From IMG/VR virus record IMGVR_UViG_3300027770_000032: 64,000 nucleotides of DNA. One strand, written 5' to 3'. Below are positions 8,410-44,192 of the stretch, piece after piece. A program made the translations under genes and the position numbers. This stretch comes from a virus. A model generated the notes under the pieces. It ran no database searches. It was given only the letters and a program-made list of their open reading frames with translations, and was not told the DNA's origin. Each line of letters starts with the position of its first letter. The stretch's first letter is position 1.

Positions 8410-8413
8410 TTAA

Positions 8414-23726: not shown

Positions 23727-26700
23727 ATGGCAAATAAGTTTCAATTCAAGCGCACGACAATTTCTGGTCGTACAGCTAATACTACTGACGTAGCAAATTC
23801 CGGCTTTATTGATAACGGCGAATTTGCAGTTAACTTAACTGATCGTAAAGTCTTCTCTTCAGATGCTGCCAATGCCATCTTCGAAGTCGGTTCAAATCTC
23901 TCTTCTCTTGCTGTTACTACGGTTGTCGCCAACGGATCTTCTGGATTAGGCGGACAAGTTCTTTCATCGAATGGAACCGCAGTTTATTGGGGTCCAGGTG
24001 GTACAGCAAATGCTGCTACCATGAATACCTATACGTTTACTGTGGCATCGAATACTACGGTGTTTACAGGTTTAGACGATACCTCAAATACATTCATATA
24101 TACTGCCGGACTTGAAAGCGTCTTTATTAATGGCTCTCGTCAGATTGCGGGTGTTGACTATAACACAACAAATACTACCGTTCTCACACTTACAGCGAAT
24201 GCGATTGCCGGTGATATTGTTCAAGTTACAACTTTAAATGGTGCTTCACTTACTCTCGGTTCTCAAGGTGCCCAAGGAGCAACCGGCGCTCAAGGTGCTA
24301 CTGGTGCTCAAGGCGCACAGGGTGCCCAAGGTGCACAAGGAGCCACTGGTGCAGCTTCATCGGTTGCCGGTCCACAAGGTTCTACTGGAGCTCAAGGTGC
24401 TCAAGGTGCTACTGGCGCTCAAGGTGCTCAAGGTGCTACTGGCGCTCAAGGTACAACTGGTTCTACAGGTGCTCAAGGTGCTACTGGAGCCCAAGGTGCT
24501 CAAGGTGCTACTGGCGCTCAAGGTGCTCAAGGTGCGGCTGGAGCTCAAGGTACAACTGGTTCTACAGGTGCTCAAGGTGCTCAAGGTGACACTGGCGCTC
24601 AAGGTGCTCAAGGATTACAAGGTGCACAAGGAGTTACCGGAGCACAAGGTGCTCAAGGTGCTACTGGCGCTCAAGGTGCTCAAGGTGCAGCTGCTGTTGT
24701 AGGTGGATCAAATACACAGATACAATTTAATGATTCTACCAGTTCCAATGGATCTGCAGGATTCACGTTTAACAAAATAAGTAATAATGTTACAATCGCT
24801 AATAATATATCTGCTACCTCTGGTACATTTGCTGGAGCAGTCTCTGGTATCACTACACTCGATGCTGGCAATACTACGATCACGGGTGTTACTAGATTAT
24901 CCTCTCCTACCATTAGTGCTCCATACTGGGGAGCAAATGGTATCAATTTAATTCAAAGTGCTGCAACCTTCATAGATAACACTACACCAGGCAATAACGG
25001 ATCGGTGTATATAAATCGTTTTGCATCTCAAACTTATAACGCAACGGTATCGACGGCGCAAATTCTATCAATCTATGGCACTTATTTTGAAGCGCCAATT
25101 TTGGGTGCTAATGTAATTACTGGTGGTGGTGGTGCACTTTATGGTAAGTTTGCATTGGGTGCGGAGGGAATCTACTCCAATGGCTCTATCTCCGTTCAAG
25201 GAGTATTAACCGCAAACAGTCCTGGTAATAATGACATTGTGGCTGTTGCATCAACAAATATTAGTGGCGCAAATGTGAATATTGGTGGCGTAACAACTAT
25301 TACTGGCGCACCAACTACTGGGCTTGTGGTAACTGTCGGCACTGCCAGCTTTACAGTAACCCCAAGTACCACTGGCACAATCACGATGGGGAACGCCACT
25401 GGTAGTGGTGATATTACTGTTGGACGGTCCACTAGAAATCAGACAGTCCAAATTGCTTCTGCCGCTACTACTTCCGGCAACACCAAGACTATCAATCTTG
25501 GCACAGGTGGTGCTGCAGGCTCAACAACCAATGTCAATATCGGTTCGACACTTTCTAATACATTTGTTACGATCAATGCTAATACCGTAACTTATACTGG
25601 AGCAGCATCTGGCATCACAACACTTGCTGCGGGTAATACTACGATCACCGGTGATATCACTGTTTCTGGTAATCTAACCATCAACGGAACAACAACGAAT
25701 ATAAATTCTACAAATCTTGTTGTAGAAGATAAAAACATTATACTTGCCGATGTTACTACTCCAACCGAGGTGACTGCGGATGGCGGTGGTATTACTCTGA
25801 AAGGTGCCACCGATAAGACATTTAACTGGGTAAATGCTACTACGAGTTGGACCTCTTCAGAAAATTTAGATCTTGCATCGGGCAAAACTTATAGGATCAA
25901 TGGCACTACTATTGCTAACTCCACAGCTTTAGGTACTGGAATTCTTGCATCTTCTTTAACCTCGGTAGGCACTTTAAGTTCTCTTACACTCGGCGGTGCT
26001 GTAACAGGTGTCACAACACTTGCCGCTGGCAATACTACGATTACTGGCTTTGCGAACGTAACATCAACGCTTGCCGTCGCTGGAATTACTACATTCTCAG
26101 GCAACGTAATTCTTGGCTCGTCCGGTCTTTCTGCAAATGGAGGATTTGGTTCTGCAGGACACGTTCTTTCATCGAATGGTACCGCTGCATATTGGACGAC
26201 TGCTGCTGCCACGGGTGTTACTAGCGTTGCGACCGCAAATGGACTTTCAGGTGGACCGATTACATCTACCGGCACAATTGGTGTTACAACAGGTCCGACG
26301 CTGACAGTCAATACGACTGGCATTCATGTCAACTCAGCATTATCAATCTCCGATCTTACACTCTCTGGCAATCTCACAGTATCTGGCACAAGAACATATG
26401 TGAACACAACGACACTTGATGTCGGTGATAATATCGTCACTCTGAATGCAGATCTTGGAGCTAATCCTCCTACTGAGAATGCCGGAATTGAAGTTATGCG
26501 CGGCACTTCCGCCAACGTTCAATTCCTTTGGGATGAAACAAACGATCGATGGTCAACTAATGACCAACCACTTGCAACCTTATCATTGACAGTTGGTAAC
26601 TCTTCTATTAGCTCTACTGTCAACGGTAGTAACTTTAGCGGTACTGCAAACAACTCGACGAATTTTGGTGGATCTTCGCTTGCAACTGTTCAAGGCCAAA

Positions 26701-29555: not shown

Positions 29556-30388
29556 TGACTGGTATCTTTGCTGGATTGTTGGGTGTAGGCGTTAGCGTAG
29601 TAACTGGCCAAGATGCCTACACCACTGCGGGTACATATACATGGGTTAAGCCAGCCGGGGTTACTAGCGTATCCATTGTTGCCGTTGGTTCCGGTAGACC
29701 CGGAGCAGCTAGTTTTTACGTTGGTGAGATCGGCGTGTGCTGGTGTGGCTTTGGCGGCGGTGGTGGCGGTGGAGGTGCGCTGGCCTACCTCAATAACTAT
29801 GATGTTTCAGCCCGATCCTCGTTGCAGATTGTAATCACCTCTGGTGGTAGCAGTACTGTTAACGACTGCGCGGCCGCGCATATATTTACGGCAGGGCTAG
29901 GCGGAGTGGGCAGCGGTAGTACTGGTGGCGATGGGGGCACTGCCACAGGTACATTTACGGCATCTTATGCTGGTGGTAAGGGTGGTATTGGCGGATATAC
30001 TGCGTGTGGCTATAATAATAACAACGGCGGTGGTGGTGGTGCTGGCGGCTATGCTGGCGTTGGTGGCTTTGGTGGCGGTCGAACCCCCCCACCAAACGGC
30101 TGTACTAATACCCCCAGTGTTGCTGGCTCTGGCGGCGGCGGCGGCGGCGGGGGCAATCCCTATAACGTAGGTGGTGGCGGCGTAGGCATACTTGGGCAAG
30201 GAACAAACGGCGCTGCTAACGGCGGTGGTGGGTCTGGCGGCGCTTCTGCAAATGTCAGAAATGGGGGAGCATACGGCGGTGGCGGCGCTGGTTGCAATGC
30301 AGTCTATGTTGCCTCAGGAGGCGCAGTTCGCATTATCTACCCTGGTACAACACGTTCCTTCCCATCGACTAATACAGGGGACCTATAA
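29555..30388 (+). CDS. Glycine-rich fibre-tip/adhesin-like protein
   Basis: TAATG coupling to the fibre; AYTTAGTYTWVKPAGVTSVSIVAVG N-terminus, polyglycine runs, Cys-containing variable loops and C-terminal GAVRIIYPG...FPSTNT. Confidence 0.7.
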   Translation: MTGIFAGLLGVGVSVVTGQDAYTTAGTYTWVKPAGVTSVSIVAVGSGRPGAASFYVGEIGVCWCGFGGGGGGGGALAYLNNYDVSARSSLQIVITSGGSSTVNDCAAAHIFTAGLGGVGSGSTGGDGGTATGTFTASYAGGKGGIGGYTACGYNNNNGGGGGAGGYAGVGGFGGGRTPPPNGCTNTPSVAGSGGGGGGGGNPYNVGGGGVGILGQGTNGAANGGGGSGGASANVRNGGAYGGGGAGCNAVYVASGGAVRIIYPGTTRSFPSTNTGDL

Positions 30389-30907: not shown

Positions 30908-31576
30908 ATGGCGCGTAAGAAAGTGTCGGAACCTATGGTGGCTCCGTTGGAAGAATTTCATTATTTTGTAACTCCCATCTATATTATTAAACAGCCACGG
31001 TTTCTTGATGTAGTTAAGACAATAGCATTGGACAGCATCAAGCAAGTTCACGGCAAAGCTAAGCCGGACAAAATACATCCTCTCCTCATGTCGGGCAATA
31101 TGTTGGAAGACACTCGCATCGAGGAGTTTGCCAACTTTGTAGGCGAGACGGCGTGGAATATCTTAGCTAGCCAAGGCTACGCTATGGAGAATTTTAGCAC
31201 TGGGTTTACTGAAATGTGGTGCCAAGAGCATTATCAAACGGCATCGATGGATTACCACGCGCATGCCGGAGGTAGCTTCCTTGTTGGCTTCTATTTCCTT
31301 GACACGCCGGAAGGATGCTCACCCGCTGTCATTCACGATCCTCGTCCAGGACGCGTCATGCTCGACTTGCCGCAAATTAATCCTAGCCAAGCAACGCTTG
31401 CAAGCACGGCGATTAACTTTATTCCAGAACCGGGGATGTTGATGTTCACACCGGCATGGTTAGCGCACAGCTTCAATCGCAATACGTCGAAGGACCCGTT
31501 CCGCTTCGTTCACTTTAACCTCGCCGTGCAGCCAAAGGCACCAGTCGCGTGTCTTGCGCCTGCAGAGGTGATCTGA
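30908..31576 (+). CDS. Putative 2OG-Fe(II) oxygenase (TIGR02466-like)
   Basis: HAH facial motif, HDPRP, PEPGMLMFTPAWLAHS, RFVHFNL. Confidence 0.8.
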   Translation: MARKKVSEPMVAPLEEFHYFVTPIYIIKQPRFLDVVKTIALDSIKQVHGKAKPDKIHPLLMSGNMLEDTRIEEFANFVGETAWNILASQGYAMENFSTGFTEMWCQEHYQTASMDYHAHAGGSFLVGFYFLDTPEGCSPAVIHDPRPGRVMLDLPQINPSQATLASTAINFIPEPGMLMFTPAWLAHSFNRNTSKDPFRFVHFNLAVQPKAPVACLAPAEVI

Positions 31577-31803
31577 TGTCGCATTTCGAAATACGCTATA
31601 ATCAAACTCGTGGTCAGCCGGGGCGCGGTACGATGGATCACGTATGGCGCGTGTTCGAGGACGGCAAGGAGTATTTGACGAAGAACGTAGAGATTAACGT
31701 GCCTTGTCGCGGGGAGAAAACCGGTAATGACTGGAGTATGGTCTGCGAGGGTGTGCTTACGTTAGATAGAGAAACATCGACTGCCACCATAGGGCTAGCG
31801 TAA
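31576..31803 (+). CDS. Small hypothetical protein
   Basis: TGATG-coupled with GAGG RBS; IRYNQTRGQPGRGTMDHVWRVFEDGKEYL. Confidence 0.7.
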   Translation: MSHFEIRYNQTRGQPGRGTMDHVWRVFEDGKEYLTKNVEINVPCRGEKTGNDWSMVCEGVLTLDRETSTATIGLA

Positions 31804-31842: not shown

Positions 31843-31850
31843 TATAAATA
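31843..31850 (+). promoter_or_regulatory. T4-type late promoter TATAAATA
   Basis: Exact consensus in the intergenic gap 28 nt before the next fibre gene. Confidence 0.85.
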
Positions 31851-31878
31851 GAATAAAATCTGAGGGATAGGGAACCAG

Positions 31879-34596
31879 ATGGCTACACCAAATAACTTTC
31901 GCGTTAAATCAGGCCTGAATGTAGGCACTACAATAGCAGGCGGTAATACAACTATTACTGGCTTTGCGAATGTCAGCACCAGCGTCAACTCAGCTTCACT
32001 CACTGTAGGTTCTAGCTTCATTGCCAACACGAGCAAAGTGGCTATCGGTACGGCAGTCGGACTTGAAGCGAACGGTGGTATCGGTACTGCCGGTCAAGTA
32101 TTACACTCAAATGGTACTTCGATATACTGGGCAGTTGATGACAATGCCGGAGGAACAGTCACATCTGTCGCAACTGCCAACGGTCTTTCTGGTGGTCCAA
32201 TTACATCAACTGGTACACTCGGTGTAACGACCGGTTCGACACTTACGGTGAATACTGCCGGCATTCATGTGAACTCAGCCTTATCAATCACATCTCTTAC
32301 GTTAGCAGGTGCAGCTTCTGGTGTTACGACACTTGCTGCCGGTAATACAACAATTACAGGTTTTGCAAACGTAACAGGTAACGTACAAATAAGCGCGATC
32401 AATGCAACCTCATTTGGCGCTACGCTTACTTCAAATTCAACGACCGCTATTTTAACTCTTGGCAACTCTTCTGTTACCGCAACAATGAATAGTTCAACCT
32501 TTAGTGGCACTGCAAACAACTCTACGAATCTTGACGGGTCTTCATTAGCTACAGTACAAGGTCAAATTACTGGTAACGCTACTACTGCATATACAAACTC
32601 AGTATCCTACACTGACACAAAGATCGGTACAGCGAATACTGCGATGGTTGCAAATGCCGGTGCAGCATATACCAATGCGACTATTTTTGCTGCCAATGCT
32701 TCGAATGCAAACAATGGCACATTAGCTTTTGCTCGATTACCTTCATTGTTTGTTGGAACGACTACGATTCAGTCAACAAGTGCTGCACAAGCCGTAACAG
32801 GTATTACGACGCTTGCCGCAGGTAACACGACGATTACTGGTGATATTACCGTTTCTGGTAACCTTACTATCAATGGTACTACAACCAATATAAATTCTAC
32901 AAATCTTGTTGTAGAAGATAAAAACATTGTGCTTGCTGACGTAACTACTCCGACCGATGTGACTGCCGACGGTGGTGGTATTACTCTGAAAGGTGCCACC
33001 GATAAGACATTTAACTGGGTTGATGCAACTGACAGCTGGACTTCTTCTGAACATATCGATCTTGCGGCCGGTAAAGTCTATAAGATCGGTACTACTACTA
33101 TTGCTAACTCTACAGCTTTAGGTACTGGAATTCTTGCATCGTCTCTTACCTCTGTAGGCACTTTAAGTTCTCTTACGCTCGGTGGCGCAGTATCAGGCGT
33201 CACAACACTCGCTGCCGGTAATACTACTATTACTGGCTTTGCGAATGCTTCAGTTTCGGTCAACTCAGCATTGTTAACTGTGGGTACAGCCTTTGTTGCT
33301 AATACGATTGGAGCTTTTCACACTGGTACTGTTAACGCTGCATCATTTACAACCACTGGTTTAACAATTAATACTACTGCTATTGTTCCTACATCAAACT
33401 CATCAGGGCAGACATTAGGTAATACCACTTCTAGGTTTGTTTTGTCCGCCAACTCAATTGACACAACAGGCGCAATTAACATCGCCGCCGGGCAAGTGTT
33501 AAAATTCAATAATGATGTTGGTATTTCTCGCTCGCAAGCTGCAGTATTGTCTATCGGCAACGGAACTCAAAATGATTCTACTGGAACAATAAGTCTTACT
33601 GGTGGTTTATTTCAAGGCGCAGTCAATGCAGCTTCACATACTGTCGGTTCTAGCTTCATTGCCAACTCAACGGGCATTACATCAACTGGCTTTGCAAACG
33701 TATCGACTACATTACAAGTGGGAACGAATACAGCCACCTTTGGTACCGCTGTTTATATTATAGCAAGTGGTAACACCGGTGTTGGTACAAGTTCTCCGGC
33801 ATCACTGTTTCATGTCAAACGCGGCAGCAATGCTACCGAAAACTACCCTACTAATACTTGGGCGGCGCGCATTATCAATGCCACCGATGCCAATACTGAA
33901 AATGGCCTTGTTGTCGGCAATCGCTGGGCTGCGGTTGAGTCAACAATTTTTGAAGCCGGGTCGATTTATGGCGGAGGCTCTGCTTGGGCATCTTATTATA
34001 AAGTCACAGGCATTGGAACGCACACTTGGGGCACGGGCTCAACTGGCACTGAAGCTATGCGTATCGATACTAACGGTAACACTGGTATTGGTAACACCGC
34101 ACCGGCCCATAAATTATCGATAGGTGGCACGCTCGCAGCCGGTAACACTACGATCACGGGTTTTGCTAACGTATCGACCACTTTACAAGTAGGAGGCATT
34201 TCTACTCTTGCCGCAAACTTAGTAATGGCCAACAATTTTATTACTCGCCCAGTGTTAGCAGGTTACTCTGAACACGAAGTGTCAAACACGGCAGTTACTG
34301 GTACATTTACACTAGACTTTTCGACTGCAAACTTCTTCGATCTAATACTTACTGGAAACACGACAATCTCACCATCTGGAATTCCAGCGAATACAAGAAT
34401 GGTTTCTGCTACACTTGCAGTCAAACAAGATGCGACCGGAGGAAGAACCATTACATGGCCGACAGGTACTAAATACGCGGGTGCTGTCTCGCCTCCTGCG
34501 ACAACGACTGCAAATGCTGTCGATATCTGGTCGATTATGACGTACGATGCGGGCAATACTTACATTGTTTCATTGTCAGTAAAGAATGCGAGCTAA
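31879..34596 (+). CDS. Modular tail fibre protein
   Basis: N-terminal NFRVKSGL, repeated [11 protein letters not shown] units, modules shared with the 23727 fibre, GNTGIGxTxP repeats, C-terminal QDATGGRTITWP...AVDIWSIMTYDAG domain. Confidence 0.8.
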   Translation: MATPNNFRVKSGLNVGTTIAGGNTTITGFANVSTSVNSASLTVGSSFIANTSKVAIGTAVGLEANGGIGTAGQVLHSNGTSIYWAVDDNAGGTVTSVATANGLSGGPITSTGTLGVTTGSTLTVNTAGIHVNSALSITSLTLAGAASGVTTLAAGNTTITGFANVTGNVQISAINATSFGATLTSNSTTAILTLGNSSVTATMNSSTFSGTANNSTNLDGSSLATVQGQITGNATTAYTNSVSYTDTKIGTANTAMVANAGAAYTNATIFAANASNANNGTLAFARLPSLFVGTTTIQSTSAAQAVTGITTLAAGNTTITGDITVSGNLTINGTTTNINSTNLVVEDKNIVLADVTTPTDVTADGGGITLKGATDKTFNWVDATDSWTSSEHIDLAAGKVYKIGTTTIANSTALGTGILASSLTSVGTLSSLTLGGAVSGVTTLAAGNTTITGFANASVSVNSALLTVGTAFVANTIGAFHTGTVNAASFTTTGLTINTTAIVPTSNSSGQTLGNTTSRFVLSANSIDTTGAINIAAGQVLKFNNDVGISRSQAAVLSIGNGTQNDSTGTISLTGGLFQGAVNAASHTVGSSFIANSTGITSTGFANVSTTLQVGTNTATFGTAVYIIASGNTGVGTSSPASLFHVKRGSNATENYPTNTWAARIINATDANTENGLVVGNRWAAVESTIFEAGSIYGGGSAWASYYKVTGIGTHTWGTGSTGTEAMRIDTNGNTGIGNTAPAHKLSIGGTLAAGNTTITGFANVSTTLQVGGISTLAANLVMANNFITRPVLAGYSEHEVSNTAVTGTFTLDFSTANFFDLILTGNTTISPSGIPANTRMVSATLAVKQDATGGRTITWPTGTKYAGAVSPPATTTANAVDIWSIMTYDAGNTYIVSLSVKNAS

Positions 34597-34599
34597 GAT

Positions 34600-35922
34600 A
34601 TGGGTATTGGTGGAGGTTCTAAATTTACACTCGAAAAAACTTGGCGCGCAAGTGGTGTCGGCACGACTACGTTTAATGCACCAGGCAATATCGCAATCCC
34701 TTACGGTAGAAATGTAATCAACGTTGCTGGTGCAGGTGGCACCGGAACAGCAGCCATTTCTGGTAACTTAAACTATAATCCACTTGTACCAGGAACATTA
34801 AACTATAATCCACTTGTTCCAGGAACATTAAACTACAATCCACTCGTTCCTGGTACTCTTAACTATAACCCACTCGTTCCTGGTAACTTGAACTATAATC
34901 CACTTGTTCCTGGAACATTAAACTATAATCCTCTAGTTCCAGGCAATCTGAACTATAATCCGCTTGTTCCCGGAAACCTAAACTATAATCCACTTGTTCC
35001 TGGAACTGCCAACTATAATGCTGTCGTTCCGGGCACTTCTAACTATAATGCTGTCGTTCCGGGCACTTCTAACTATAATGCTGTCGTTCCAGGCAATTCT
35101 AACTTTAACCCAATTGTTCCAGGAACTGCGAGCACATATAATCCAGAGAGCGCAGGAACAGCGAGCTCATATAATGCTCCAAGCCCAGGAACAATTGCTG
35201 GATATACTCCCTATAAAGCCAAAGCGGGTACCGGAGGCAATCCGTTCTATAATGCTCCAACTGCTGGTAATCTGAATTATAACTCTCCTTCTCCAGGTAC
35301 AGTTGCAAGTTATAATTCTCCTTCAGGCGGCACATTTGCTGGTACTAATCCATCAAGTGGAGGTACATTTGCTGGTACTAATCCATCAAGTGGAGGTACA
35401 TTTGCTGGTACTAATCCATCAAGCGGCGGTACTTTATCTTCATACAATGCTCCAACTGGCCAAACATCGACCGGAACATATAATGCTCCAACTGGAAAAA
35501 CATCGACCGGAACATATAATGCTCCAACTGGTCAAACATCAACAGCAACATACAATGCTCCAACTGGCCAAACATCGACCGGAACATATAATGCTCCAAC
35601 TGGAAAAACATCAACAGGCACTTATAATGCACCAACGGGTCAAACCTCAACAGGCACTTATAATGCACCAACGGGTCAAACCTCGACCGGAACATATAAC
35701 GCTCCGACTGGACAAACGTCGTCAACATATAATCCAAATACTCCGGCAGTTGCCGGTACCTCATCATCAGCGCTCGGCGTGACAGCTCCCGGATCGGCGA
35801 CCGGAGGAACTCCAGCAACACCGGTAGGTCAAACACTTGTTAGCTATTATACATATCCAGATAACGCAACATATCCTGTGACAGTGGCTCCTGGGGGTAA
35901 TATAACTATAGTAGTATCGTAA
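34600..35922 (+). CDS. Pro/Tyr/Asn-rich tandem repeat protein, putative fibre-tip adhesin
   Basis: Non-repetitive N-terminus (TTTFNAPGNIAIPYG...VAGAGGTG) and C-terminus (SSALGVTAPG...YPVTVAPGGNITIV) flank about 320 aa of repeats; starts 3 nt after the fibre stop. Confidence 0.7.
   Translation: MGIGGGSKFTLEKTWRASGVGTTTFNAPGNIAIPYGRNVINVAGAGGTGTAAISGNLNYNPLVPGTLNYNPLVPGTLNYNPLVPGTLNYNPLVPGNLNYNPLVPGTLNYNPLVPGNLNYNPLVPGNLNYNPLVPGTANYNAVVPGTSNYNAVVPGTSNYNAVVPGNSNFNPIVPGTASTYNPESAGTASSYNAPSPGTIAGYTPYKAKAGTGGNPFYNAPTAGNLNYNSPSPGTVASYNSPSGGTFAGTNPSSGGTFAGTNPSSGGTFAGTNPSSGGTLSSYNAPTGQTSTGTYNAPTGKTSTGTYNAPTGQTSTATYNAPTGQTSTGTYNAPTGKTSTGTYNAPTGQTSTGTYNAPTGQTSTGTYNAPTGQTSSTYNPNTPAVAGTSSSALGVTAPGSATGGTPATPVGQTLVSYYTYPDNATYPVTVAPGGNITIVVS
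34762..35121 (+). repeat. 30-bp tandem repeats: 8x G(N/T)LNYNPLVP, 3x GT(A/S)NYNAVVP, 1x GNSNFNPIVP
   Basis: Counted from the translation and DNA. Confidence 0.95.
35326..35727 (+). repeat. 3x 33-bp (GGTFAGTNPSS) followed by 8x 36-bp (YNAPTG(Q/K)TSTGT) tandem repeats
   Basis: Counted from the translation and DNA; the last unit is one codon shorter. Confidence 0.95.
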
Positions 35923-35946
35923 TTTTTATATAATGAGGAATATATA

Positions 35947-36537
35947 ATGACTTTTGACTTTCAAAAATATAATGCGCCGTTGGAGTGTTTTGCTATATGG
36001 GAAGGTGGATTTACACCTGAAGAAGTAGACAAAATCCTTTATATGGAATCTCTCCAAAACTTTGGAAAAGGTACAGTAGGATCCGAGAATGCAGTTGCTA
36101 AAAAAGAAGTCAGAGACTCTGAAATAGCATGGATTCACCCCGATCAACATTCCCATTGGTTATTTGAACGACTTGCTGCAATCACATCAACCATAAATCA
36201 TCAACAATTTATGTATGATATTAAAGGTGTTGAACTTCTTCAATACACAAAATACAATATTAACCAACACTACACTTGGCACTGGGATGTTGAGTTTGGT
36301 TGGCAAAACTTTCAGCGTAAAATCTCTGCCACGATGATGCTCTCTGATCCTGATGAGTATGAAGGTGGTGAACTCGAGGTTTGCAATAATGGCAATTTTG
36401 AAGATACTAAAGTAGTGAAACCTAAAAAAGGTGATATTGTTTTCTTTGCATCTTGGATGCCGCATCGAGTAAAACCAGTTATTTCTGGTGAAAGAAAATC
36501 ATTGGTAATGTGGGTAATGGGAAAAAGGCAATCGTAA
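35947..36537 (+). CDS. 2OG-Fe(II) oxygenase, prolyl-4-hydroxylase/PKHD-type
   Basis: QYTKY...HYTWHWD (HxD), RKISATMMLSDPDEYEGGEL, HRVKPVISGERKSLVMW. Confidence 0.9.
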   Translation: MTFDFQKYNAPLECFAIWEGGFTPEEVDKILYMESLQNFGKGTVGSENAVAKKEVRDSEIAWIHPDQHSHWLFERLAAITSTINHQQFMYDIKGVELLQYTKYNINQHYTWHWDVEFGWQNFQRKISATMMLSDPDEYEGGELEVCNNGNFEDTKVVKPKKGDIVFFASWMPHRVKPVISGERKSLVMWVMGKRQS

Positions 36538-37253
36538 TGTTTAACTTCTTTAAAAAACCGGTGATGGAATTCTATTGCCATCCAGAACAACATGGTGTTA
36601 TTCCTGAACCAAAACCGGCTGCAAAGTATATAGCAGATTGGTTTAAAAAAATTCCTGTCGATCTTGATGAAAGAGACACGTTTGGTGCTCGATCAATGTC
36701 TGCAAAGAAATGTATGCCAATGCTAGATGCAATGACATTAGGATACGTGATTCCTTTACAAGCAGATCTACATCTCATTTCTAATCACGATCGCACTCAT
36801 ATTGAGGTGACAAATCCTCCTGGTACAAAGATTTGTGAGTTTCATAATATCAAGCAAGTTGGTGAAAAGACTGCGCCCGGATTTCCGGCAGCTCCAATAA
36901 AGTTCATCAACTATTGGGTGATTAAAACAAAGCCCGGTTATTCTACGATGATCATGCCATTAGTTAATAATTTTGATAATGACTTTACGTGTTTGTCAGG
37001 TCTTGTCGACACTGATAGATATCCTAAAGAAATCAATTTTCCTGCAATCTGGCACACTCCTAACTTTGATGATATTATTCCAGCAGGAACTCCACTTGTT
37101 GTAGTGTTTCCTATTAAAAGAAGCGATATTCCATCTAAACCAATCGTCAGAGAAATGACCACTAAAGAATTTAAACACATTGATAATATCAAAAAAGCAC
37201 AAGACAGTCGTCGTCATGTCTATACACAAGAATTGAGGGAACCTAGAAAATGA
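36537..37253 (+). CDS. Hypothetical protein, dUTPase-fold-like (DUF6065-like), paralogue 1
   Basis: ATG at 36537 (TAATG overlap). KKCMPMLDAMTLGYVIP, SGLVDTD, IIPAGTPLVVVFPIKR. Confidence 0.5.
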   Translation: MFNFFKKPVMEFYCHPEQHGVIPEPKPAAKYIADWFKKIPVDLDERDTFGARSMSAKKCMPMLDAMTLGYVIPLQADLHLISNHDRTHIEVTNPPGTKICEFHNIKQVGEKTAPGFPAAPIKFINYWVIKTKPGYSTMIMPLVNNFDNDFTCLSGLVDTDRYPKEINFPAIWHTPNFDDIIPAGTPLVVVFPIKRSDIPSKPIVREMTTKEFKHIDNIKKAQDSRRHVYTQELREPRK

Positions 37254-37969
37254 TTTTCAATTTTCTTAAAAAGAAAAAAGATCTTGAATTTGTAGATACC
37301 AGTAGAACTGCTTATCAGACATATCCTGTTGTAAGAGCGGCTGATATCAAACCGCGCACATTTGAATATCAAAAAAACAAATACAAAAAGCATATGTTGC
37401 CTCACTGCCCCGGTATGATTCAATATGCTGAGATGGGATATATTATTCCTGCATGGATTGATATTCACATTAGAGCGAATAAAGCAGGTGTTGCTCACTA
37501 TATTGGATCTGACGAACGCGGAACCCGCGGATATTTGCCAGGTAGAGTAATGGGTGCAGACGTAATCGATGGGATCTTTGAACCAGAAGATGGTGTTCCG
37601 TTGACTCCTCTTAATTTTGGAGCACCTTGGGCTATTTTTGGTCGTGGTAATATTACAGCCTTGTTATTACCTGCGATTTATCATTCAGACTTCTTAGACG
37701 ATTTGATGGTATTACCTGGATCTGTTGATTATGAAAAGTTTCATACTGCCAATTTTATCTGTGCTCCAAAGCGTGAGTGCGAGGTACATATCAAAGCTGG
37801 AGATCCTTTGTTGCATGTGATCCCGTTCTGGAATAAAGAATTTAATGCTGGATTTGGGCCTGGATCACAAGATCAAGTAGACAAATGGAATAATGAAATT
37901 CCCGGTGATGATAAACAATATTATCGTAGGTTTCAAATGTTAAAGAAAGTGTTTAGGTTGTCAAAATGA
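37250..37969 (+). CDS. Hypothetical protein, dUTPase-fold-like (DUF6065-like), paralogue 2
   Basis: HCPGMIQYAEMGYIIPAW, PGSVDYE and IKAGDPLLHVIPF align with the upstream gene; both begin MxFNF(F/L)KK-like. Confidence 0.5.
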   Translation: MIFNFLKKKKDLEFVDTSRTAYQTYPVVRAADIKPRTFEYQKNKYKKHMLPHCPGMIQYAEMGYIIPAWIDIHIRANKAGVAHYIGSDERGTRGYLPGRVMGADVIDGIFEPEDGVPLTPLNFGAPWAIFGRGNITALLLPAIYHSDFLDDLMVLPGSVDYEKFHTANFICAPKRECEVHIKAGDPLLHVIPFWNKEFNAGFGPGSQDQVDKWNNEIPGDDKQYYRRFQMLKKVFRLSK

Positions 37970-39036
37970 AAATATTTGTATCAATCTGTTCTTATAGAGA
38001 TCCACTTTTACATTATACTCTTGAGAGTTTAATTGAAAACAAATCAAATAGACACGAAGCAACTTACTCGATCTTAGAACAGATCGTATACAAAGACTCG
38101 CTTGAGAAGTTATATCCAGAACTTGTGGCAAGACCGGATGTTGTTTATAAAAGAGTCGAACCACAATATTCAGACGGGGTAGGTTGGGCGAGAAAGGTTA
38201 ACTCACTGAATGTAAGAGATGAGGATTTCTTTTATCAAATCGACAGTCATATGGTGTTCGATGAAAACTGGGATCGATATCTTGTAGAAGACTATAAGCG
38301 TGGTGTCAAGAAATCTGGTAGTAAGAAAGTTATTATTGACGGTGGAACTAAAACTTATACGTTAACTGAAAAGTTTGAACCGTATAAACATATAGAAGCT
38401 TACGGAATTACCACACATGCAAAATATTTTATGTGGGACAGAAATTCTATATTAGCAGTACATGGACATCATGTTCCTCCTACACCAGATGTGATGCCTA
38501 CAGCACATCTTTTTGCCGGCAATCTTTTTACTCATGTCGAATGGCTTCAAAATGTAGGAATCAATCATCTTTCGTTTTTTGATGCTGAAGAACAGCTTCT
38601 TACTATGACATCATTTGAAGCCGGTTACTATATGTACGCGCCGACTGAAGTTAAAGTATATCATTTCGCCGGATCCGGAGAGTATACTACTAAACAGTGG
38701 TATAAACCTATTATTAGTATGGATAAATACTCAGAATGCGTAAAAATATCTGTTAAACAGTGGACAGATTATCTTGAATATGTTCAAGAATCCGTTCTCA
38801 TAGATTACTACAAATATTCTGGCGTAGATTACATTAATCAAAAGATCGAAGATCGCGGTCGAGACTATCCTGCATTAGTCAGTAAAATGAATTATCCTTT
38901 GATACCAGGCGAAACTCACGTCGTTATTAATAAAGAAATTGAAGAAGACACTAAATCTAATATAATTGTTAATGAAGAAATTCAAGATGATAAAGGTGAA
39001 ATAACAAATGACAGTGCCGAATCTCAAACGGAATAG
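37966..39036 (+). CDS. Glycosyltransferase, GT60-like (Skp1-hydroxyproline GlcNAc transferase family)
   Basis: IFVSICSYRDP N-terminus, GVGWAR, QIDSHMVFDENWD (DSH metal motif), AGNLF, FFDAEE, YH. Confidence 0.8.
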   Translation: MKIFVSICSYRDPLLHYTLESLIENKSNRHEATYSILEQIVYKDSLEKLYPELVARPDVVYKRVEPQYSDGVGWARKVNSLNVRDEDFFYQIDSHMVFDENWDRYLVEDYKRGVKKSGSKKVIIDGGTKTYTLTEKFEPYKHIEAYGITTHAKYFMWDRNSILAVHGHHVPPTPDVMPTAHLFAGNLFTHVEWLQNVGINHLSFFDAEEQLLTMTSFEAGYYMYAPTEVKVYHFAGSGEYTTKQWYKPIISMDKYSECVKISVKQWTDYLEYVQESVLIDYYKYSGVDYINQKIEDRGRDYPALVSKMNYPLIPGETHVVINKEIEEDTKSNIIVNEEIQDDKGEITNDSAESQTE

Positions 39037-39469
39037 AGAATGTGGAGATTGTAAAGAATGCTGTACGGGCACTTTATATGCTGATATTTACGGAAAAATT
39101 ATGGATAAGGGAAGACCGTGTCACTACTTAGGTGGAGAGGGTTGCACTATTTATGAAAAAAGGCCAGGTGTTTGTAAAGCATATGCATGTGAATGGCTAA
39201 GAGATGATTCGACACTTATTCCAGAATGGATGAGACCGGATTTATCAAAAGTTATTATTACGCAAAAAGGCTGGGGTGATAATCTTCAACACAATTATTG
39301 GAATATCGCAGAAAGCCATCAGAAGATTGATTCTGTAATCTTAAATTGGGTCTATATGTATACGTCTTCTCATAATATATGTGCTAACATTGAAGTTGAC
39401 GGAAGATGGTATCAAATGGGCCCTCCCGAATTTGTAGAATATATGCAGAGAAGTGTTTCGGCGACTTAA
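39008..39469 (+). CDS. YkgJ-family cysteine-cluster (CxxCxxCC) protein
   Basis: RECGDCKECC, PCHYL...CTIYEKRPGVCKAYACEW. Confidence 0.85.
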   Translation: MTVPNLKRNRECGDCKECCTGTLYADIYGKIMDKGRPCHYLGGEGCTIYEKRPGVCKAYACEWLRDDSTLIPEWMRPDLSKVIITQKGWGDNLQHNYWNIAESHQKIDSVILNWVYMYTSSHNICANIEVDGRWYQMGPPEFVEYMQRSVSAT

Positions 39470-39473
39470 ATCT

Positions 39474-40067
39474 ATGTTATACGAAGAAATAAAACTTAAA
39501 AATCCTGGGGTATTAAAAACAAAACTACCTAATGATATATTCAGGCAGATAAAAGCTGATGCACTTGCAGATGCTGAAAAAAAGATCCCATATAATGAAC
39601 ATTTAGTAGGTCAAATTGCTGGTGAATATCAAATCAAAGTAAATCCATATTTTGAAAAAATTATTAATAATATGTGGATTGAATATAGAGAAAGATTTGA
39701 CTATCATCTTTCAAACCAATATTATATTTCTGATACAGCATGGATAAATGTCCAGAAAAAACATGAATTCAATCCCGTGCATCATCATGAAGGTGCAGCA
39801 TCTTGGGTTATATGGTTACAGATCCCGTATGATTTAGAGGAAGAATTGAACACTTTTAAAAATGCAAAAAGTCGTGATACTTCTTTATTTTATTTTTATT
39901 ATAATTCGTTTATAGGAACACAAGAAAATTCCCCGCTGTATATTGATAAACAATGGGAAGGAACTATGATTATGTTTCCGGCGATGCTGAAGCATAGCGT
40001 ATATCCATTTTATACTACAGACTCTCCAAGAATTTCAATATCTGGGAACATTGAAGTCCATGCATGA
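39474..40067 (+). CDS. Putative 2OG-Fe(II) oxygenase (HxH type)
   Basis: WINVQKKHEFNPVHHH, SWVIWLQIP, MFPAMLKHSVYPF, RISISGN; ATG 39474 chosen over the upstream GTG. Confidence 0.8.
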   Translation: MLYEEIKLKNPGVLKTKLPNDIFRQIKADALADAEKKIPYNEHLVGQIAGEYQIKVNPYFEKIINNMWIEYRERFDYHLSNQYYISDTAWINVQKKHEFNPVHHHEGAASWVIWLQIPYDLEEELNTFKNAKSRDTSLFYFYYNSFIGTQENSPLYIDKQWEGTMIMFPAMLKHSVYPFYTTDSPRISISGNIEVHA

Positions 40068-40890
40068 TATTCAATTTTGGAAAGAATTATGTCCAAATCT
40101 TACGATTGCAGAAATAGATCGTTGGGCAACACCGTCAGAAATTGCTATAGAAGATGTCAAAGATAAAATAGTTAACGACGGATATTTCCATATACCATTT
40201 GACTCATGGAATCTGCCTTTCGATGAAATGACTCGATGCATTGAAAAGTTAAAAGATCTTGATATGCAACCAGTATGGTGTTTTATATACGACGAGTTTT
40301 GGTTATTGACGGTCAAGATCGATGCACACATCAAATCTATTCTTGGTGAAAATTATTATCGGCTTCCTGAAGTGTGGGCATGGCATATCGATCCATCGAA
40401 AGAAGAAAGAGGCTGGAAGATACATCGAGAAGGCGGATATTATAGTACATTTGATGACGGTCTTCCAAAAACTTTAACTATCTGGATTCCTTTAACAGAT
40501 GCAACTTCAGAGAATGGTTGCATGTGTGTCGTGCCAATAGCAAACGATCCTAACTTTTATAATACAGACGAATCGTATTATGCAAATTGGCAAGAAGATT
40601 TTTATGATAATAGTAAAAAAATACTTGAAGCCAAATCAGGAGATGTGCTTGGATGGCATCCGCAGATATTACATTGGGGGAAAAAATCTACTAATAAAAA
40701 TGCAAATCCGCGAATATCAATATCCATGGAGTTTGTTTCGAATCGTATATTAGAACTAAATGATACTGCGTGTTTTTATGACAAAGAAGAACATCCATGG
40801 TTAGATCCATTTTATATTCCAGATCTGACTAAAAAGACAGAACTCATAAATAAGCTAGTATCACGATATCAACATATGTGGGAAAAGTAA
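40060..40890 (+). CDS. PhyH-family 2OG-Fe(II) dioxygenase
   Basis: WKIHRE, TIWIPLTDATSENGCMCVVP, GDVLGW...ILHWG, RISISMEF. Confidence 0.8.
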   Translation: MHDIQFWKELCPNLTIAEIDRWATPSEIAIEDVKDKIVNDGYFHIPFDSWNLPFDEMTRCIEKLKDLDMQPVWCFIYDEFWLLTVKIDAHIKSILGENYYRLPEVWAWHIDPSKEERGWKIHREGGYYSTFDDGLPKTLTIWIPLTDATSENGCMCVVPIANDPNFYNTDESYYANWQEDFYDNSKKILEAKSGDVLGWHPQILHWGKKSTNKNANPRISISMEFVSNRILELNDTACFYDKEEHPWLDPFYIPDLTKKTELINKLVSRYQHMWEK

Positions 40891-41499
40891 ATGCCTGAAC
40901 TAACCAAATACGAAAAATTAGTAAGACTTCAGCCGGTCGATTTTGTGCCTGAGATACAATTGTATCTATGTGATACAGCACATCACATCGTATATCCCGA
41001 TAGATATCCTTGTTGGGCATACGCATGGGTAGGCGGAAAGGCACTTGCCAGATATATTCTTGATAATCCGCAATTAGTTCAAGGCAAAACAATCATTGAC
41101 ATGGCAGCTGGATCTGGAATTGCAGCCATCGCAGCTAAAATGGCTGGCGCTGCAAGAGTAATAGCAGTCGATGACTATACACCGAGTATAGAAATCATGC
41201 AACTCAATGCTGAAGCGAATGGCGTTGAAATAGAATTGGTTCAACAAAGCGTTTTTGACTATCAACCAAGCCACGCCTATGACTTATTCATAATGGGCGA
41301 TCCATTCTATAACGATGATCTCTTCTCGTATGTTGAAAATAATTTCAAACCAGTACTTGTCGGATGCCCGGTAAGATCTCATACTTTGTATTATAATTTT
41401 TATGTAAAAAATCCAATACACACATATACTATTGAATCACCTCCAGGCTACGACGACTATCTCGAATTTGACACACACATTTGGTGGTTAAGTGCCTAA
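40891..41499 (+). CDS. SAM-dependent methyltransferase, family 16 / METTL20(ETFBKMT)-like
   Basis: PCWAYAWVGGKALARYILDNPQLVQGKTIIDMAAGSGIAAIAA, VIAVD, MGDPFY. Confidence 0.8.
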   Translation: MPELTKYEKLVRLQPVDFVPEIQLYLCDTAHHIVYPDRYPCWAYAWVGGKALARYILDNPQLVQGKTIIDMAAGSGIAAIAAKMAGAARVIAVDDYTPSIEIMQLNAEANGVEIELVQQSVFDYQPSHAYDLFIMGDPFYNDDLFSYVENNFKPVLVGCPVRSHTLYYNFYVKNPIHTYTIESPPGYDDYLEFDTHIWWLSA

Positions 41500-42250
41500 A
41501 TTTACGTGTTTATTAACACCAGGAAGATCGGGCTCTACGTTTTTATACACTGCATTTAATCAAATTCCAAATACTATTGCACATGAATCATACTATGTGT
41601 GTACTGATAATATCGAGCAGTGTTTTTCTTCTATTTACGGAAAATCGTTGGCAGAAAAAAACAGATTCATAAAGTCTAAGATCGAATATATCGAAAACTT
41701 AGACTGTGAATACTATGTTGATACTGTATCTCTTATATGCCAAGATAATAACTTAGAGTTGTTTATCGATAACGGTTATAAACCAAATGTCATTACGCTT
41801 CGCCGTGATCCAAGAGATGTTGCCTTAAGCTGGTATAGTTTTGGTTGGGATCCGACTAAGTCGCCTTTAACATCTGTCAATCCAAATGACAAAGATGCCA
41901 TCAAAATCACATTACAGGATCCACATGATTATCAATATTGTTTATGGTATTGCTTTGAGATTGAAAGACTGTGTAGACAATATAAAACAAAACTTGAATC
42001 TTGGGGCGTCAAACATTATGAAACATCCTTGTCTCATATAATAGACAAAGACAAGTTTAATTTGATGTTAGATTTTTTTGAAATGCCTAACATATCAGAG
42101 ATATGTCAAGGTAAAATAAATGAACTGAATGAATTTAAGGTCAGATCATTAGAAAATCATCTAATTCCTGAGTTGCAACAGCAGTTTCTAGAAAACATTA
42201 GAGACAATAATGACATAGAGTTTTTTGATATGGATCAGTGGAACTATTAG
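41492..42250 (+). CDS. Sulfotransferase-like P-loop protein
   Basis: TPGRSGSTFL (5'-PSB-like), AHE, ITLRRDPRDVALSW (3'-PB-like). Confidence 0.7.
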   Translation: MPKFTCLLTPGRSGSTFLYTAFNQIPNTIAHESYYVCTDNIEQCFSSIYGKSLAEKNRFIKSKIEYIENLDCEYYVDTVSLICQDNNLELFIDNGYKPNVITLRRDPRDVALSWYSFGWDPTKSPLTSVNPNDKDAIKITLQDPHDYQYCLWYCFEIERLCRQYKTKLESWGVKHYETSLSHIIDKDKFNLMLDFFEMPNISEICQGKINELNEFKVRSLENHLIPELQQQFLENIRDNNDIEFFDMDQWNY

Positions 42251-42831
42251 TCTCTATAAACAGGAAGTGGAAAACCATATTGTGCTACATTTCCTGGTGA
42301 AACATAATGTAAAAAGGCTTGTGTGATAGATTTTTGTTCTACCTTTGGTCGATAATGCCATCTTCCGTCAAATTCGGTTGTGCCATAAAACATAATAGCA
42401 TCTCCTTCTTCCATAAAGACTTCTACAGGATTTGATCCGTGTTCGTCATCACAGAAACATAAAGACGTTGGCTGATCGCCGTCTTTGTCAATTAGTATAG
42501 TAGCTGAGAATTCACAGACAGAACGATCTCGATGGATCTTGAGTTCAGAATCGGTATAATATTGCCTAAAAAATACATAAGAAGGAATCAATTCAGTATT
42601 AAAGATGTCTTGCACTTTATTCTTATATGCGAGCAGCATACTATCAGCAAAGATAGTAGGTTGATAGTGATCGACATTGCCAATGAGATAAGGATTTGCT
42701 TCTACAGTCTTAATATTCGAAGCCTGTGAAACATCCATAAAAGACTTACAAATCTGAATTACTTCTGCAGATAAAAAGTTCTTGATGAGAACATATCCAT
42801 GTTTTTTAAGATGTTTTCTAGCGTTTTTCAT
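42247..42831 (-). CDS. 2OG-Fe(II) oxygenase
   Basis: PSYVFFRQY...LKIHRDRSVCEFSATI, EGDAIMFYG, WHYRP, QAFLHYV. Start placed at the TAATG-coupled ATG (42831). Confidence 0.8.
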   Translation of the reverse strand: MKNARKHLKKHGYVLIKNFLSAEVIQICKSFMDVSQASNIKTVEANPYLIGNVDHYQPTIFADSMLLAYKNKVQDIFNTELIPSYVFFRQYYTDSELKIHRDRSVCEFSATILIDKDGDQPTSLCFCDDEHGSNPVEVFMEEGDAIMFYGTTEFDGRWHYRPKVEQKSITQAFLHYVSPGNVAQYGFPLPVYRD

Positions 42832-43592
42832 TATATGCCTTTCATCCACTTTGTTCCATGCTTCGAGCTGTACTTTGTTTCAGGATCGTATGCTGCAAAA
42901 TCTTCGTAGCGAGGATCTCCTGGCTCAGCTCGCTTGCCGATGCTATACTCGCCGATATGATTGACGATGTTATTTCCTTCTTCGGTCTTGAGCTTACATG
43001 TTTGCATGCCAAGTTGTTGCAACGATTTCGCGACGACATACTCACTTAAGTTCTTCTCGCCTACTGATTCGGTATGAGGAAGATCTACTATGGCACGCGG
43101 AAAAACACTTGCCAAACTCCAAAAATATGCTTCAGAAAGTTCTCCTCGATATTTTCCGAGTGTAATGTCTGTTTCATAAGCCTGAGTTTCCTCTTCAAAA
43201 TCATACCATTTTTGTCTTGTCAAACATACTTGAGAAACGTTACGATAATCATGTAAGATCTGAGTCATGTCGAGCATTCGAATCGGACAGTTGAACGTCA
43301 CATCATCTTCTGATAGATACACGTAGTCATAATCTCGTTCTCTCAGCAGTTCGAAGGTTCGATTCCATACGTATGGCAAACCCATATTCTGTTGATGTAA
43401 GAAGATCTCGGTAAAACCAAAACTTTTGGCTAACTCGAACATCGTACCATCGTGGCGACCTTTTGGCATATCATCGATAAAGATGCCTTCGACTTCACAA
43501 CCTTCAAAGTCTAACATATCACGCTGAGATTTGAGTGTAGGAATTAAATACTCGAGTCGATTCGTCGACCATATTACTTTACAAACTTTCAT
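42831..43592 (-). CDS. Glycosyltransferase (GT-A fold, family 2-like)
   Basis: NRLEYLIPTLKS, FIDD, NMGL, YVYLSEDD (DxD-like), VSQVCL, HIGE. Confidence 0.7.
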   Translation of the reverse strand: MKVCKVIWSTNRLEYLIPTLKSQRDMLDFEGCEVEGIFIDDMPKGRHDGTMFELAKSFGFTEIFLHQQNMGLPYVWNRTFELLRERDYDYVYLSEDDVTFNCPIRMLDMTQILHDYRNVSQVCLTRQKWYDFEEETQAYETDITLGKYRGELSEAYFWSLASVFPRAIVDLPHTESVGEKNLSEYVVAKSLQQLGMQTCKLKTEEGNNIVNHIGEYSIGKRAEPGDPRYEDFAAYDPETKYSSKHGTKWMKGI

Positions 43593-44140
43593 CTCACTTG
43601 CTCCGTGTCAAAAAAGAATGTCTGAAAAAGACGTCCATCATATAAATCTTTCCCAAAGTAATCTAAGCTAGCATGGAAAAGGTCACCGCTATAAAGAATC
43701 AATCGATTGTATTTGTTGCCTACAACATCGATTCGATCCCACTTGGTATAGTCATATGCTTCGTGCTCGTTTGTTGGAGCCCGATATTCGCCTGTTTCTT
43801 TGTGCCGATACATGGCAGTGCCAGCGGTATATGGAGCATCTGGTGACAAGTAGCATACACCAGCCCACATGCTTGTATGATCGCAATGAATCCACGTTCG
43901 ATCTAAAGCGGTAGCGTATTGAAAGGCACCAGTATAACCGGAATCTTCGTGCCAATTGGAAATCTTTCCGACTGGATTCATCCAATGCTGAATGCAATCT
44001 TTGACATCTTGTGTCAAGAATGAAGGTGTTCGTTTTCCTGGATAGTTACCTATGACGCCAAAGTCTTGAGTTAAAGCAAAGGCTCTGACCGCGTCTGGAT
44101 TGATATAGAAGTTATCAATAATCATCAAGTCTAAATTCAT
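43589..44140 (-). CDS. 2OG-Fe(II) oxygenase, DUF6445-like
   Basis: IIDNFYINPDAVR, NYPGKRT, WIHCD, WAGVCYLSP, YNRLILYSGDLFHAS, RLFQTFFF; GAGG RBS. Confidence 0.8.
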   Translation of the reverse strand: MNLDLMIIDNFYINPDAVRAFALTQDFGVIGNYPGKRTPSFLTQDVKDCIQHWMNPVGKISNWHEDSGYTGAFQYATALDRTWIHCDHTSMWAGVCYLSPDAPYTAGTAMYRHKETGEYRAPTNEHEAYDYTKWDRIDVVGNKYNRLILYSGDLFHASLDYFGKDLYDGRLFQTFFFDTEQVR

Positions 44141-44171
44141 AATATTTCAAGTCCTCATGCTATACTAGTTG

Positions 44172-44179
44172 TATTTATA
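44172..44179 (-). promoter_or_regulatory. T4-type late promoter on the minus strand driving the three reverse-oriented enzyme genes
   Basis: TATTTATA on + = TATAAATA on -, 31 nt upstream of the 44140 start. Confidence 0.8.
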
Positions 44180-44184: not shown

Positions 44185-44192
44185 TATAAATA
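44185..44192 (+). promoter_or_regulatory. T4-type late promoter for the gp13 operon
   Basis: Exact TATAAATA, 33 nt before the gp13 ATG. Confidence 0.85.

Follow-up and report, generated by a model that had tools for sequence, protein, structure and literature searches.

The gene region described here lies at positions 31843-44179 of the virus record IMGVR_UViG_3300027770_000032 (the window, meaning the whole analysed stretch of 64,000 nucleotides). It comprises a tail-fibre gene, the gene for a 440-residue repeat protein (REP) and twelve tightly packed genes, bounded by two TATAAATA motifs, and its closest described counterparts come from several quarters. In the Skp1 pathway of Dictyostelium and Toxoplasma, a prolyl 4-hydroxylase (P4H)-type 2-oxoglutarate (2OG)-Fe(II) oxygenase (PhyA) is paired with a GT60 polypeptide alpha-N-acetylglucosamine (GlcNAc)-transferase (Gnt1), which acts on the hydroxyproline that PhyA makes on Skp1 (PMC6939170). 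Mucin-type O-GlcNAc initiation, described in Trypanosoma cruzi and Dictyostelium, employs GT60 polypeptide alpha-GlcNAc-transferases on Thr and Ser of dense, Ser/Thr/Pro-rich mucin-like repeats (PMC8724618). Protein hydroxyls are the GlcNAc acceptors of every characterised GT60 enzyme (PMC6939170, PMC8724618). Giant viruses encode 2OG hydroxylases and glycosyltransferases that modify their own repetitive fibre proteins, as with the Mimivirus collagen lysyl hydroxylase/glycosyltransferase L230 and collagen glucosyltransferase (PMC9546862, PMC9614988); the prolyl 4-hydroxylase of PBCV-1 belongs to the same group. Gp38, which caps the gp37 trimer in Salmonella phage S16 and in T2-type phages (PDB 6F45), is the product of a separate small gene right after the distal fibre gene and has a repeat-rich tip with variable host-determining segments (PMC6851490). 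Marine cyanomyoviruses carry several Oxy_3, Oxy_5 and PhyH-type oxygenases and a 'ferrochelatase-domain' hypothetical protein, with no assigned substrate (PMC3037559). The usual account of how phage fibres recognise hosts invokes only their amino-acid sequence. Glycosyltransferases encoded near the structural genes of mycobacteriophages reportedly decorate virion proteins, in work attributed to Freeman et al. 2023 and mentioned in PMC11256854.

Virus-encoded post-translational decoration of virion fibres is thus already known; what is new here is the link to GT60, the linkage counts and the split between core and variable genes. The locus shares the P4H-type/GT60 pairing with the Skp1 pathway and departs from it in other respects. 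No Skp1, PgtA, AgtA or Gat1-type extension enzyme was found among the open reading frames (ORFs) scanned, and the role of substrate presumably falls to a phage repeat protein. The two enzymes are separated by a pair of dUTPase-fold proteins (DUF6065a and DUF6065b), a bacterial virus encodes the system, and the hydroxylase stands closer to PKHD/PiuC-type enzymes of bacteria than to PhyA. The mucin-type GT60 enzymes are Golgi-located and need no hydroxylase; the second repeat arm of REP (YNAPTGxTSTGT, eight copies) is likewise rich in Thr, Ser and Pro. The giant-virus systems belong to eukaryotic viruses, target Lys or Pro in collagen Gly-X-Y or PAPK repeats and use families of the lysyl hydroxylase (LH)/GT25-like kind, whereas here a phage has non-collagen repeats, GT60 and DUF6065. 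REP resembles gp38 in its separate small gene and variable repeats, but Pfam and PHROG searches found no homology between them at sequence or profile level; its repeats are Asn/Pro/Tyr-based and not Gly-rich, its terminal domains were beta-rich and not helical in AlphaFold2 (AF2) models, and gp38 has no dedicated modifying enzymes. The oxygenase genes of isolated cyanophages are not linked to a REP-type protein. The mycobacteriophage targets are capsid and tail-tube proteins, with other glycosyltransferase families and with neither a hydroxylase nor a repeat adhesin. Literature searches returned no paper describing the cassette, nothing linking GT60 or Gnt1 to phages, and no paper containing the terms 'DUF6065', 'PF19541' or 'phrog_7084'.

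The main result is one of gene linkage. About 140 related loci were compared in three independent collections, seeded from GT60 (11 IMG/VR loci plus two further places found with GT60 homologue P0240), solely from the N-terminal domain of REP (49 loci) and from DUF6065a (80 IMG/VR loci plus 2 loci in bacterial genome assemblies). Synteny was assessed by tblastn, and dereplicated counts were made over 42 DUF6065a clusters (<95% identity). The order fibre C-terminal domain, REP, hydroxylase, DUF6065a, DUF6065b was conserved, and GT60 usually came next. DUF6065b was present in 42/42 clusters and the hydroxylase in 41/42, the single miss being cut off by the locus end. The automatic test placed REP in 38 of the 39 testable clusters; the remaining locus (L146) has, by eye, a 210-residue mini-REP with the same terminal domains. 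GT60 was found in 34/41 clusters, and in these it is encoded together with the P4H-type hydroxylase, as in a Skp1-type pathway. Among the REP-seeded loci, 45 of the 46 testable ones had the hydroxylase gene together with DUF6065a and DUF6065b.

The cassette occurs in several settings, non-T4 ones among them: directly before gp13, between other fibre genes, and inverted relative to gp13. In L046 it lies in a phage with different neighbours, followed by a lysozyme-like protein (by eye, from the translation) and other fibres. L146 is a prophage-like region (4691-8936) of an 863-kb contig of Undibacterium sp. Rencai35W, where the cassette stands beside a capsid gene and a DUF4376 fibre-assembly-like gene. 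This minimal form consists of a 360-residue fibre with the same C-terminal domain, the mini-REP, the hydroxylase, DUF6065a/b and the DUF4376 protein, with no GT60, and the Undibacterium strain is a possible culturable entry point. Three loci (L133-L135, about 465-8500) carry two REP paralogues in tandem, each followed by its own hydroxylase; in the first pair GT60 is directly adjacent to the hydroxylase, and the second pair is accompanied by DUF6065a/b. Linkage across these settings, together with duplicated REPs that bring their own hydroxylase, fits genes that function as a unit and does not fit a common site of insertion. Judged by these comparisons, the coupling of REP, hydroxylase and DUF6065a/b is far beyond that of a shared insertion hot spot. 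The same comparisons divide the twelve genes into a conserved four-enzyme core (hydroxylase, DUF6065a, DUF6065b, GT60) and a lineage-specific island, since the outer genes are confined to the closest clusters or tied to gp13.

REP follows the fibre gene after a gap of 3 nt and is dominated by four residues (16% Thr, 15% Gly, 13% Asn, 12% Pro). Its DNA contains tandem repeats of 30 bp (12 copies), 33 bp (3 copies) and 36 bp (7.8 copies). The copies match one another at 80-97%, so the repeats are no assembly artefact. The encoded units are NYNPLVPGxL-type 10-mers, GGTFAGTNPSS 11-mers and YNAPTGxTSTGT 12-mers (examples: NYNPLVPGTL, YNAPTGQTSTGT). One arm has at least eight NYNPLVPGxL units and the other the eight YNAPTGxTSTGT units, with a short unique centre between them. 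Family members are 210-884 residues long and share a conserved N-terminal part of about 45 residues and a C-terminal part of about 50, with two repeat arms, very variable in sequence and length, around a variable centre. Across the family the repeats contain 8-29% Asn, 3-20% Pro, 0-20% Tyr, 9-29% Ser plus Thr and about 0-1% Lys. Lysine methylation of the repeats was considered and judged unlikely because Lys is almost absent from them. No Pfam or PHROG match to REP was found. In the AF2 model the terminal domains had predicted local distance difference test (pLDDT) values above 84, the arms 50-70 and the centre below 50. The arms were modelled, at this low confidence, as stacked short strands resembling a beta-solenoid (VIA Z up to 8.7, within the range of common arrangements), an appearance to be taken as a lead and not as a result.

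The last 100 or so residues of the fibre form a conserved domain that was present beside REP in every related locus by alignment, and fibre residues ~790-905 gave tblastn matches just upstream of REP in all loci. REP is presumably the distal, host-contacting part that caps the fibre, given its position after the fibre gene and the constant company of this domain. A complex prediction combining REP with the fibre C-terminal domain in three copies scored 0.17 (mark 0.32), which weighs neither way on docking.

Two separate observations concern fibres in the window. Residues 305-456 of the 905-residue fibre (32791-33246) are 91% identical to residues 628-779 (25602-26057) of a 1944-residue fibre; as the two fibres are elsewhere only 40-50% alike, this suggests a recent exchange of the segment between the two genes. 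Directly after the gene for the 1944-residue fibre (23721-29555) is an ORF of 287 residues (29525-30388) with Gly runs (GGGGGGGG, GGDGG, GGKGGIGG), which may encode a gp38-like tip adhesin of that fibre. It had no Pfam match, and the REP profile showed no similarity to it.

The hydroxylase matched PiuC/PKHD hydroxylases and the P4H of virus PBCV-1 (5c5t) in the PDB. Of its HxD...H iron triad and 2OG-binding Arg, residues H112, D114 and R183 were present in 57/57 homologues and H173 in 55/57. All 120 GT60 homologues listed carry PF11397, and residues D12, D93-S94-H95, E208-E209 and H233 were invariant in 47 unique homologues. We take D93-S94-H95 to be the metal-binding DxH motif of a GT-A fold, as in GT27/GT60. 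The preservation of the triad, the Arg and the DxH across 30-50% identity suggests that catalysis is probably retained in both enzymes. A search of 50,697 records of isolated phages gave no homologue of the GT60 protein, and a PDB sequence search gave no solved relative.

The two DUF6065 proteins are paralogues (blastp E 5e-7). The true start of DUF6065a is probably at 36537, giving 238 residues. Its AF2 model (pLDDT 86) was assigned a dUTPase/dCTP deaminase fold by both Foldseek (E 1.5e-4) and VIA, whose 22 best matches all belonged to that superfamily (top Z 10.0, root-mean-square deviation 3.3 over 120 residues); the dUTPase-fold likeness proposed for the pair in an earlier sequence-only reading was thereby confirmed. 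No dUTPase Pfam match was found, and the DUF6065 profile retrieved no dUTPase from the PDB at E up to 10. The five dUTPase motifs were not found, a GLVDTDxY stretch alone recalling motif III by eye. DUF6065a is the most conserved cassette protein and has many invariant polar residues, including D167-T-D169-x-Y171. Its ESM Atlas matches were unnamed viral clusters only, and the family comprises about 430 mostly viral proteins. Among isolated phage records, DUF6065 was found only in haloarchaeal tailed viruses and, at 24% identity, in three cyanophages. The haloarchaeal homologues (~32% identity) occur in 49 records, beside the tail module. In the one such record examined, Halophage HF1 (6905-7789), a lone DUF6065 gene converges on the end of the tail/baseplate module, with no hydroxylase gene next to it.

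We consider that the core enzymes covalently modify REP or the fibre, by hydroxylation followed by addition of O-GlcNAc, with a probability of roughly 0.55. Under this reading a mobile 'fibre-tip cassette', joined by a lineage-specific set of further enzyme genes, would be transcribed late, all its genes from the TATAAATA at 31843. The hydroxylase would oxidise residues of the REP repeats, Pro being likeliest by family and Asn possible. GT60 would add GlcNAc from UDP-GlcNAc to the new hydroxyl, or straight to Ser/Thr. The DUF6065 pair would carry out a further, probably nucleotide-dependent step, and the outcome would be an adhesin with a chemically decorated surface. What the analysis shows directly is the gene content, the conservation of catalytic residues, the fold, the linkage statistics and the promoter motifs; we infer the substrate, the order of the steps, the chemistry, the timing and the location in the virion. 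If the reading is true, a chemical layer would be added to the determinants of host range, protease stability and evasion of receptor-mimic defences, and a compact, five-gene cassette would provide the first GT60/P4H pair used by a bacterial virus and the first functional context for DUF6065.

The sequence-only reading had gone further, to a multi-step virion-protein modification pathway built from all twelve genes. That reading is partly supported: the linkage of the core holds, and a single pathway of twelve genes is distinctly unlikely, the outer genes being variable or tied to gp13. Organisation like a cluster for ribosomally synthesised and post-translationally modified peptides, also proposed, was rejected: REP is a protein of 440 residues with conserved terminal domains and no leader, and there is no protease or exporter among the twelve genes. 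A more tentative picture, somewhat unlikely in its entirety, is that of a portable 'self-decorating adhesin' cassette in phages of several morphotypes. In it the tip protein REP would be hydroxylated by its own 2OG oxygenase and then O-GlcNAcylated by GT60, as a bacterial-virus counterpart of the eukaryotic Skp1 and mucin pathways. The DUF6065 pair would be a new kind of protein-modifying enzyme, possibly using the new hydroxyls instead of water as acceptors of a nucleotide-derived group, and sulfation, methylation and further hydroxylation would have been added in this lineage.

Several observations weigh against the view that the core enzymes modify REP or the fibre. The cassette was found in no isolated phage. 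The hydroxylase falls outside the NCBIfam PKHD YbiX/PiuC equivalogs (best 70.4 bits, cut-off 143), and its family is broad. The nucleotide-enzyme fold of DUF6065 does not by itself indicate a protein substrate. One locus (L040) has REP, then other genes and gp13, with no hydroxylase, DUF6065 or GT60 in 16 kb, so the enzymes are dispensable to a REP. Pro makes up only 3-5% of the repeats in L012, L013, L045 and L139, where the hydroxylase is still present; the target residue is therefore uncertain, and Asn or another residue is possible. REP composition did not differ between GT60-positive and GT60-negative loci, so that the co-variation of enzyme content with the adjacent tip protein that had been anticipated was not seen at this level. 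The expected association of the enzymes with fibre or tip genes in other phages held for the core. The variability of the outer eight genes counts against their part in such a scheme.

Three other explanations were weighed. The whole stretch might be a hyperplastic auxiliary-gene island of the cyanomyovirus kind, acting on host metabolites, proteins or envelope, with the fibre vicinity as a tolerated insertion site. In cyanomyovirus genomes 2OG-Fe(II) oxygenases number up to five or more and are accompanied by PhyH-like proteins and the 'ferrochelatase-domain' hypothetical, for which roles in 2OG balance or DNA repair have been proposed, and similar oxygenases are scattered in their genomes without known substrate, a point that also tells against REP modification (PMC3037559). 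The outer eight genes vary between close relatives, the island (36000-42000) has a GC content of 0.35-0.37 against 0.42-0.51 in the flanking fibre and structural genes, and a further Oxy_5 gene lies upstream at 30908. This explanation gives no account of the adjacency of REP, hydroxylase and DUF6065a/b in 39/39 testable lineages and in unrelated contexts, or of duplicated REPs bringing their own hydroxylase. It is not plausible for the core and unlikely for the stretch as a whole; for the outer genes alone the chances are about even. Distinctly unlikely, in our judgement, is a fibre-linked role of the core proteins without covalent modification, either as chaperones of assembly or trimerisation or as structural components of the tip, their oxygenase and glycosyltransferase domains being co-opted binders. 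Genes immediately downstream of the fibre are in the usual place of fibre chaperones and adhesins. Proteins of the dUTPase fold are trimeric like fibres, herpesvirus tegument proteins reuse the fold without catalysis, and the structure matches of DUF6065a include the non-enzymatic viral proteins UL82 and ORF10. The tail-adjoining homologues of haloarchaeal viruses and the REP of L040 without core enzymes fit as well. Against this stand the invariant Fe/2OG residues of the hydroxylase and DxH of GT60, which point to retained catalysis, and the conservation of DUF6065a, whose many invariant polar residues are typical of an enzyme.

A role in DNA or nucleotide modification, with the dUTPase-fold proteins acting on the dNTP pool, oxygenases on bases, and glycosyltransferase and methyltransferase decorating them, is very improbable. 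Phage DNA hypermodification pathways that join oxygenase and glycosyltransferase steps exist, and the dUTPase/dCTP-deaminase fold of DUF6065 would fit one. Yet no gene matched a TET/JBP, DNA-glycosyltransferase or DNA-methylase family, GT60 is a family of polypeptide transferases, the methyltransferase resembles protein methyltransferases, and DUF6065 has no profile-level similarity to dUTPases. The genes also sit in late-type structural operons, after the fibre-tip gene even in a small prophage-like element. The earlier judgement that DNA modification was the less likely function is therefore upheld for the core.

The window is the structural module of an uncultured T4-like myovirus. Baseplate genes and several fibre genes (346-31576) are followed by the region under study, then gp13-gp14-gp15-gp16-gp17-gp18 and the head genes. 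Megablast found no near-identical DNA to the window among isolated phages; the major capsid protein shares ~60% identity with its counterparts in Stenotrophomonas DLP6, Pelagibacter Mosig, Methylophilales Melnitz and cyanomyoviruses. The layout given by the sequence-only reading, a fibre and a repeat protein followed almost without gaps by nine plus-strand and three minus-strand genes, was found exactly as described (Table 1). The nine occupy 35947-42250 and the three 42247-44140, with overlaps or gaps of 0-24 nt, and the two arms converge at 42247-42250.

Table 1. Features of the region, with positions in the window and the evidence for each assignment
Feature	Position	Strand	Evidence or remark
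TATAAATA, T4-late-promoter-like	31843-31850	+	28 nt before fibre ATG
Tail fibre protein, 905 aa	31879-34596	+	PHROG tail-fibre matches, E 1e-10 to 1e-23
REP, 440-aa repeat protein, presumed fibre-tip adhesin	34600-35922	+	
PKHD/P4H-type 2OG-Fe(II) hydroxylase, 196 aa (core)	35947-36537	+	2OG-FeII_Oxy_3 PF13640, E 1e-19, 71.7 bits (cut-off 27)
DUF6065a (core)	36510-37253	+	PF19541 and phrog_7084; dUTPase-like fold
DUF6065b (core)	37250-37969	+	phrog_7084, E 8e-16; 25% identical to DUF6065a
GT60 polypeptide GlcNAc-transferase-like protein, 356 aa (core)	37966-39036	+	PF11397, E 1e-22, 81.3 bits (cut-off 21)
CxxCxxCC (YkgJ-like) Cys-cluster protein	39008-39469	+	PF03692, E 0.002 (sub-threshold); phrog_9155, E 2e-37
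2OG-FeII_Oxy_5 oxygenase (Oxy5)	39453-40067	+	PF13759, E 6e-13
PhyH-type 2OG oxygenase	40051-40890	+	PF05721, E 3e-13
Class I S-adenosylmethionine methyltransferase, PrmA/Methyltransf_16 protein-methyltransferase type	40891-41499	+	PrmA 39.2 (cut-off 22); Methyltransf_16 31.6 (cut-off 21)
Sulfotransferase-like protein	41492-42250	+	Sulfotransfer_1 PF00685, E 4e-6, 26.8 bits (cut-off 22)
phrog_2954 protein, cyanophage 'ferrochelatase-domain' hypothetical	42247-42849	-	PhyH E 0.048; HRD...H by eye
Weak glycosyltransferase, possible GT-A type	42831-43592	-	phrog_2456, E 1.7e-5 over 38 residues
DUF6445 protein, 2OG-oxygenase-like, first minus-arm gene	43589-44140	-	PF20043, E 1.5e-14; weak Oxy_5; phrog_1644
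TATAAATA	44172-44179	-	32 nt before DUF6445 start; back to back with gp13 motif 44185-44192

The upstream TATAAATA predicted for each arm was present, as expected at about -10 of a T4-type late transcription unit, and the enzyme genes do sit in late-type operons of the structural module, as had been claimed. The window contains nine copies of the motif, compared with 4.2 +/- 2.1 in shuffled sequences, nine being reached in 5/100 shuffles; 8/9 copies precede the start of a structural or late gene by no more than ~80 nt. The placement of the motif is beyond chance and its copy number is not. Scans for sigma-70-like promoters and terminator-like sites inside the region gave chance levels only. 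Motifs before both arms, overlapping genes and no internal terminator-like signal above chance together support the reading in which the cassette is expressed late and acts on the fibre tip.

By family searches, 9 or 10 of the twelve genes are enzyme-like. The sequence-only reading had counted nine modifying enzymes, and most of these calls were borne out. Of the five 2OG-Fe(II) oxygenases, three are firm (Oxy_3, Oxy_5, PhyH), DUF6445 is probable and the phrog_2954 protein is weak, a possible 2OG oxygenase on its sequence features. Of the two glycosyltransferases GT60 is firm and the minus-strand gene at 42831 weak, with no Pfam, PDB or NCBIfam match. The methyltransferase call was sound, with scores above gathering; among proteins with a solved structure or a name, those nearest to it are protein methyltransferases. 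The sulfotransferase-like call also held, just above the Pfam cut-off, and the sequence carries PGRSGST and RRDPRD..S motifs, presumably the loops that bind 3'-phosphoadenosine-5'-phosphosulfate. The YkgJ cysteine-cluster call has a match below the gathering score. Neither the methyltransferase nor the sulfotransferase-like protein had a homologue among the 50,697 isolated phage records, and PDB sequence searches with the sulfotransferase-like protein, the weak glycosyltransferase and the phrog_2954 protein returned nothing.

The cysteine-cluster, Oxy5, PhyH, methyltransferase, sulfotransferase-like and phrog_2954 genes were confined to the 3-5 closest clusters and are lost individually; L002 is without Oxy5 and the phrog_2954 gene, and L004 without Oxy5. 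The weak glycosyltransferase and DUF6445 genes are paired and remain divergent from gp13 in either orientation of the cassette, tracking gp13 and not REP. The outer eight genes thus form a variable island within the same late transcription units. Additional decorations may come from these genes, and nothing ties them to REP.

Fifteen other loci, with 4/7 GT60-less clusters among them, also have a sulfotransferase-like ORF within or behind the cassette (for example L040 9602-10907, L012 6404-7845 and L046 9383-10006; one had a weak Sulfotransfer_2 match). These ORFs gave no BLAST match to the sulfotransferase-like protein of the window and are sometimes accompanied by an ORF of 208-251 residues. 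Just before the fibre promoter, the stretch 30908-31803 holds another 2OG-FeII_Oxy_5 gene (E 2e-10) together with an ORF of 84 residues, so the oxygenase island extends past the left border of the region. This pair recurs together in L091-L111 and L136. Elsewhere in the window, a module of ~70-120 residues (30-43% identity) is common to a 1879-residue baseplate protein (346-5985), a 1793-residue phrog_358 protein (8414-13795) and the sheath protein gp18 (48698-51310), and is repeated four times in the baseplate protein.

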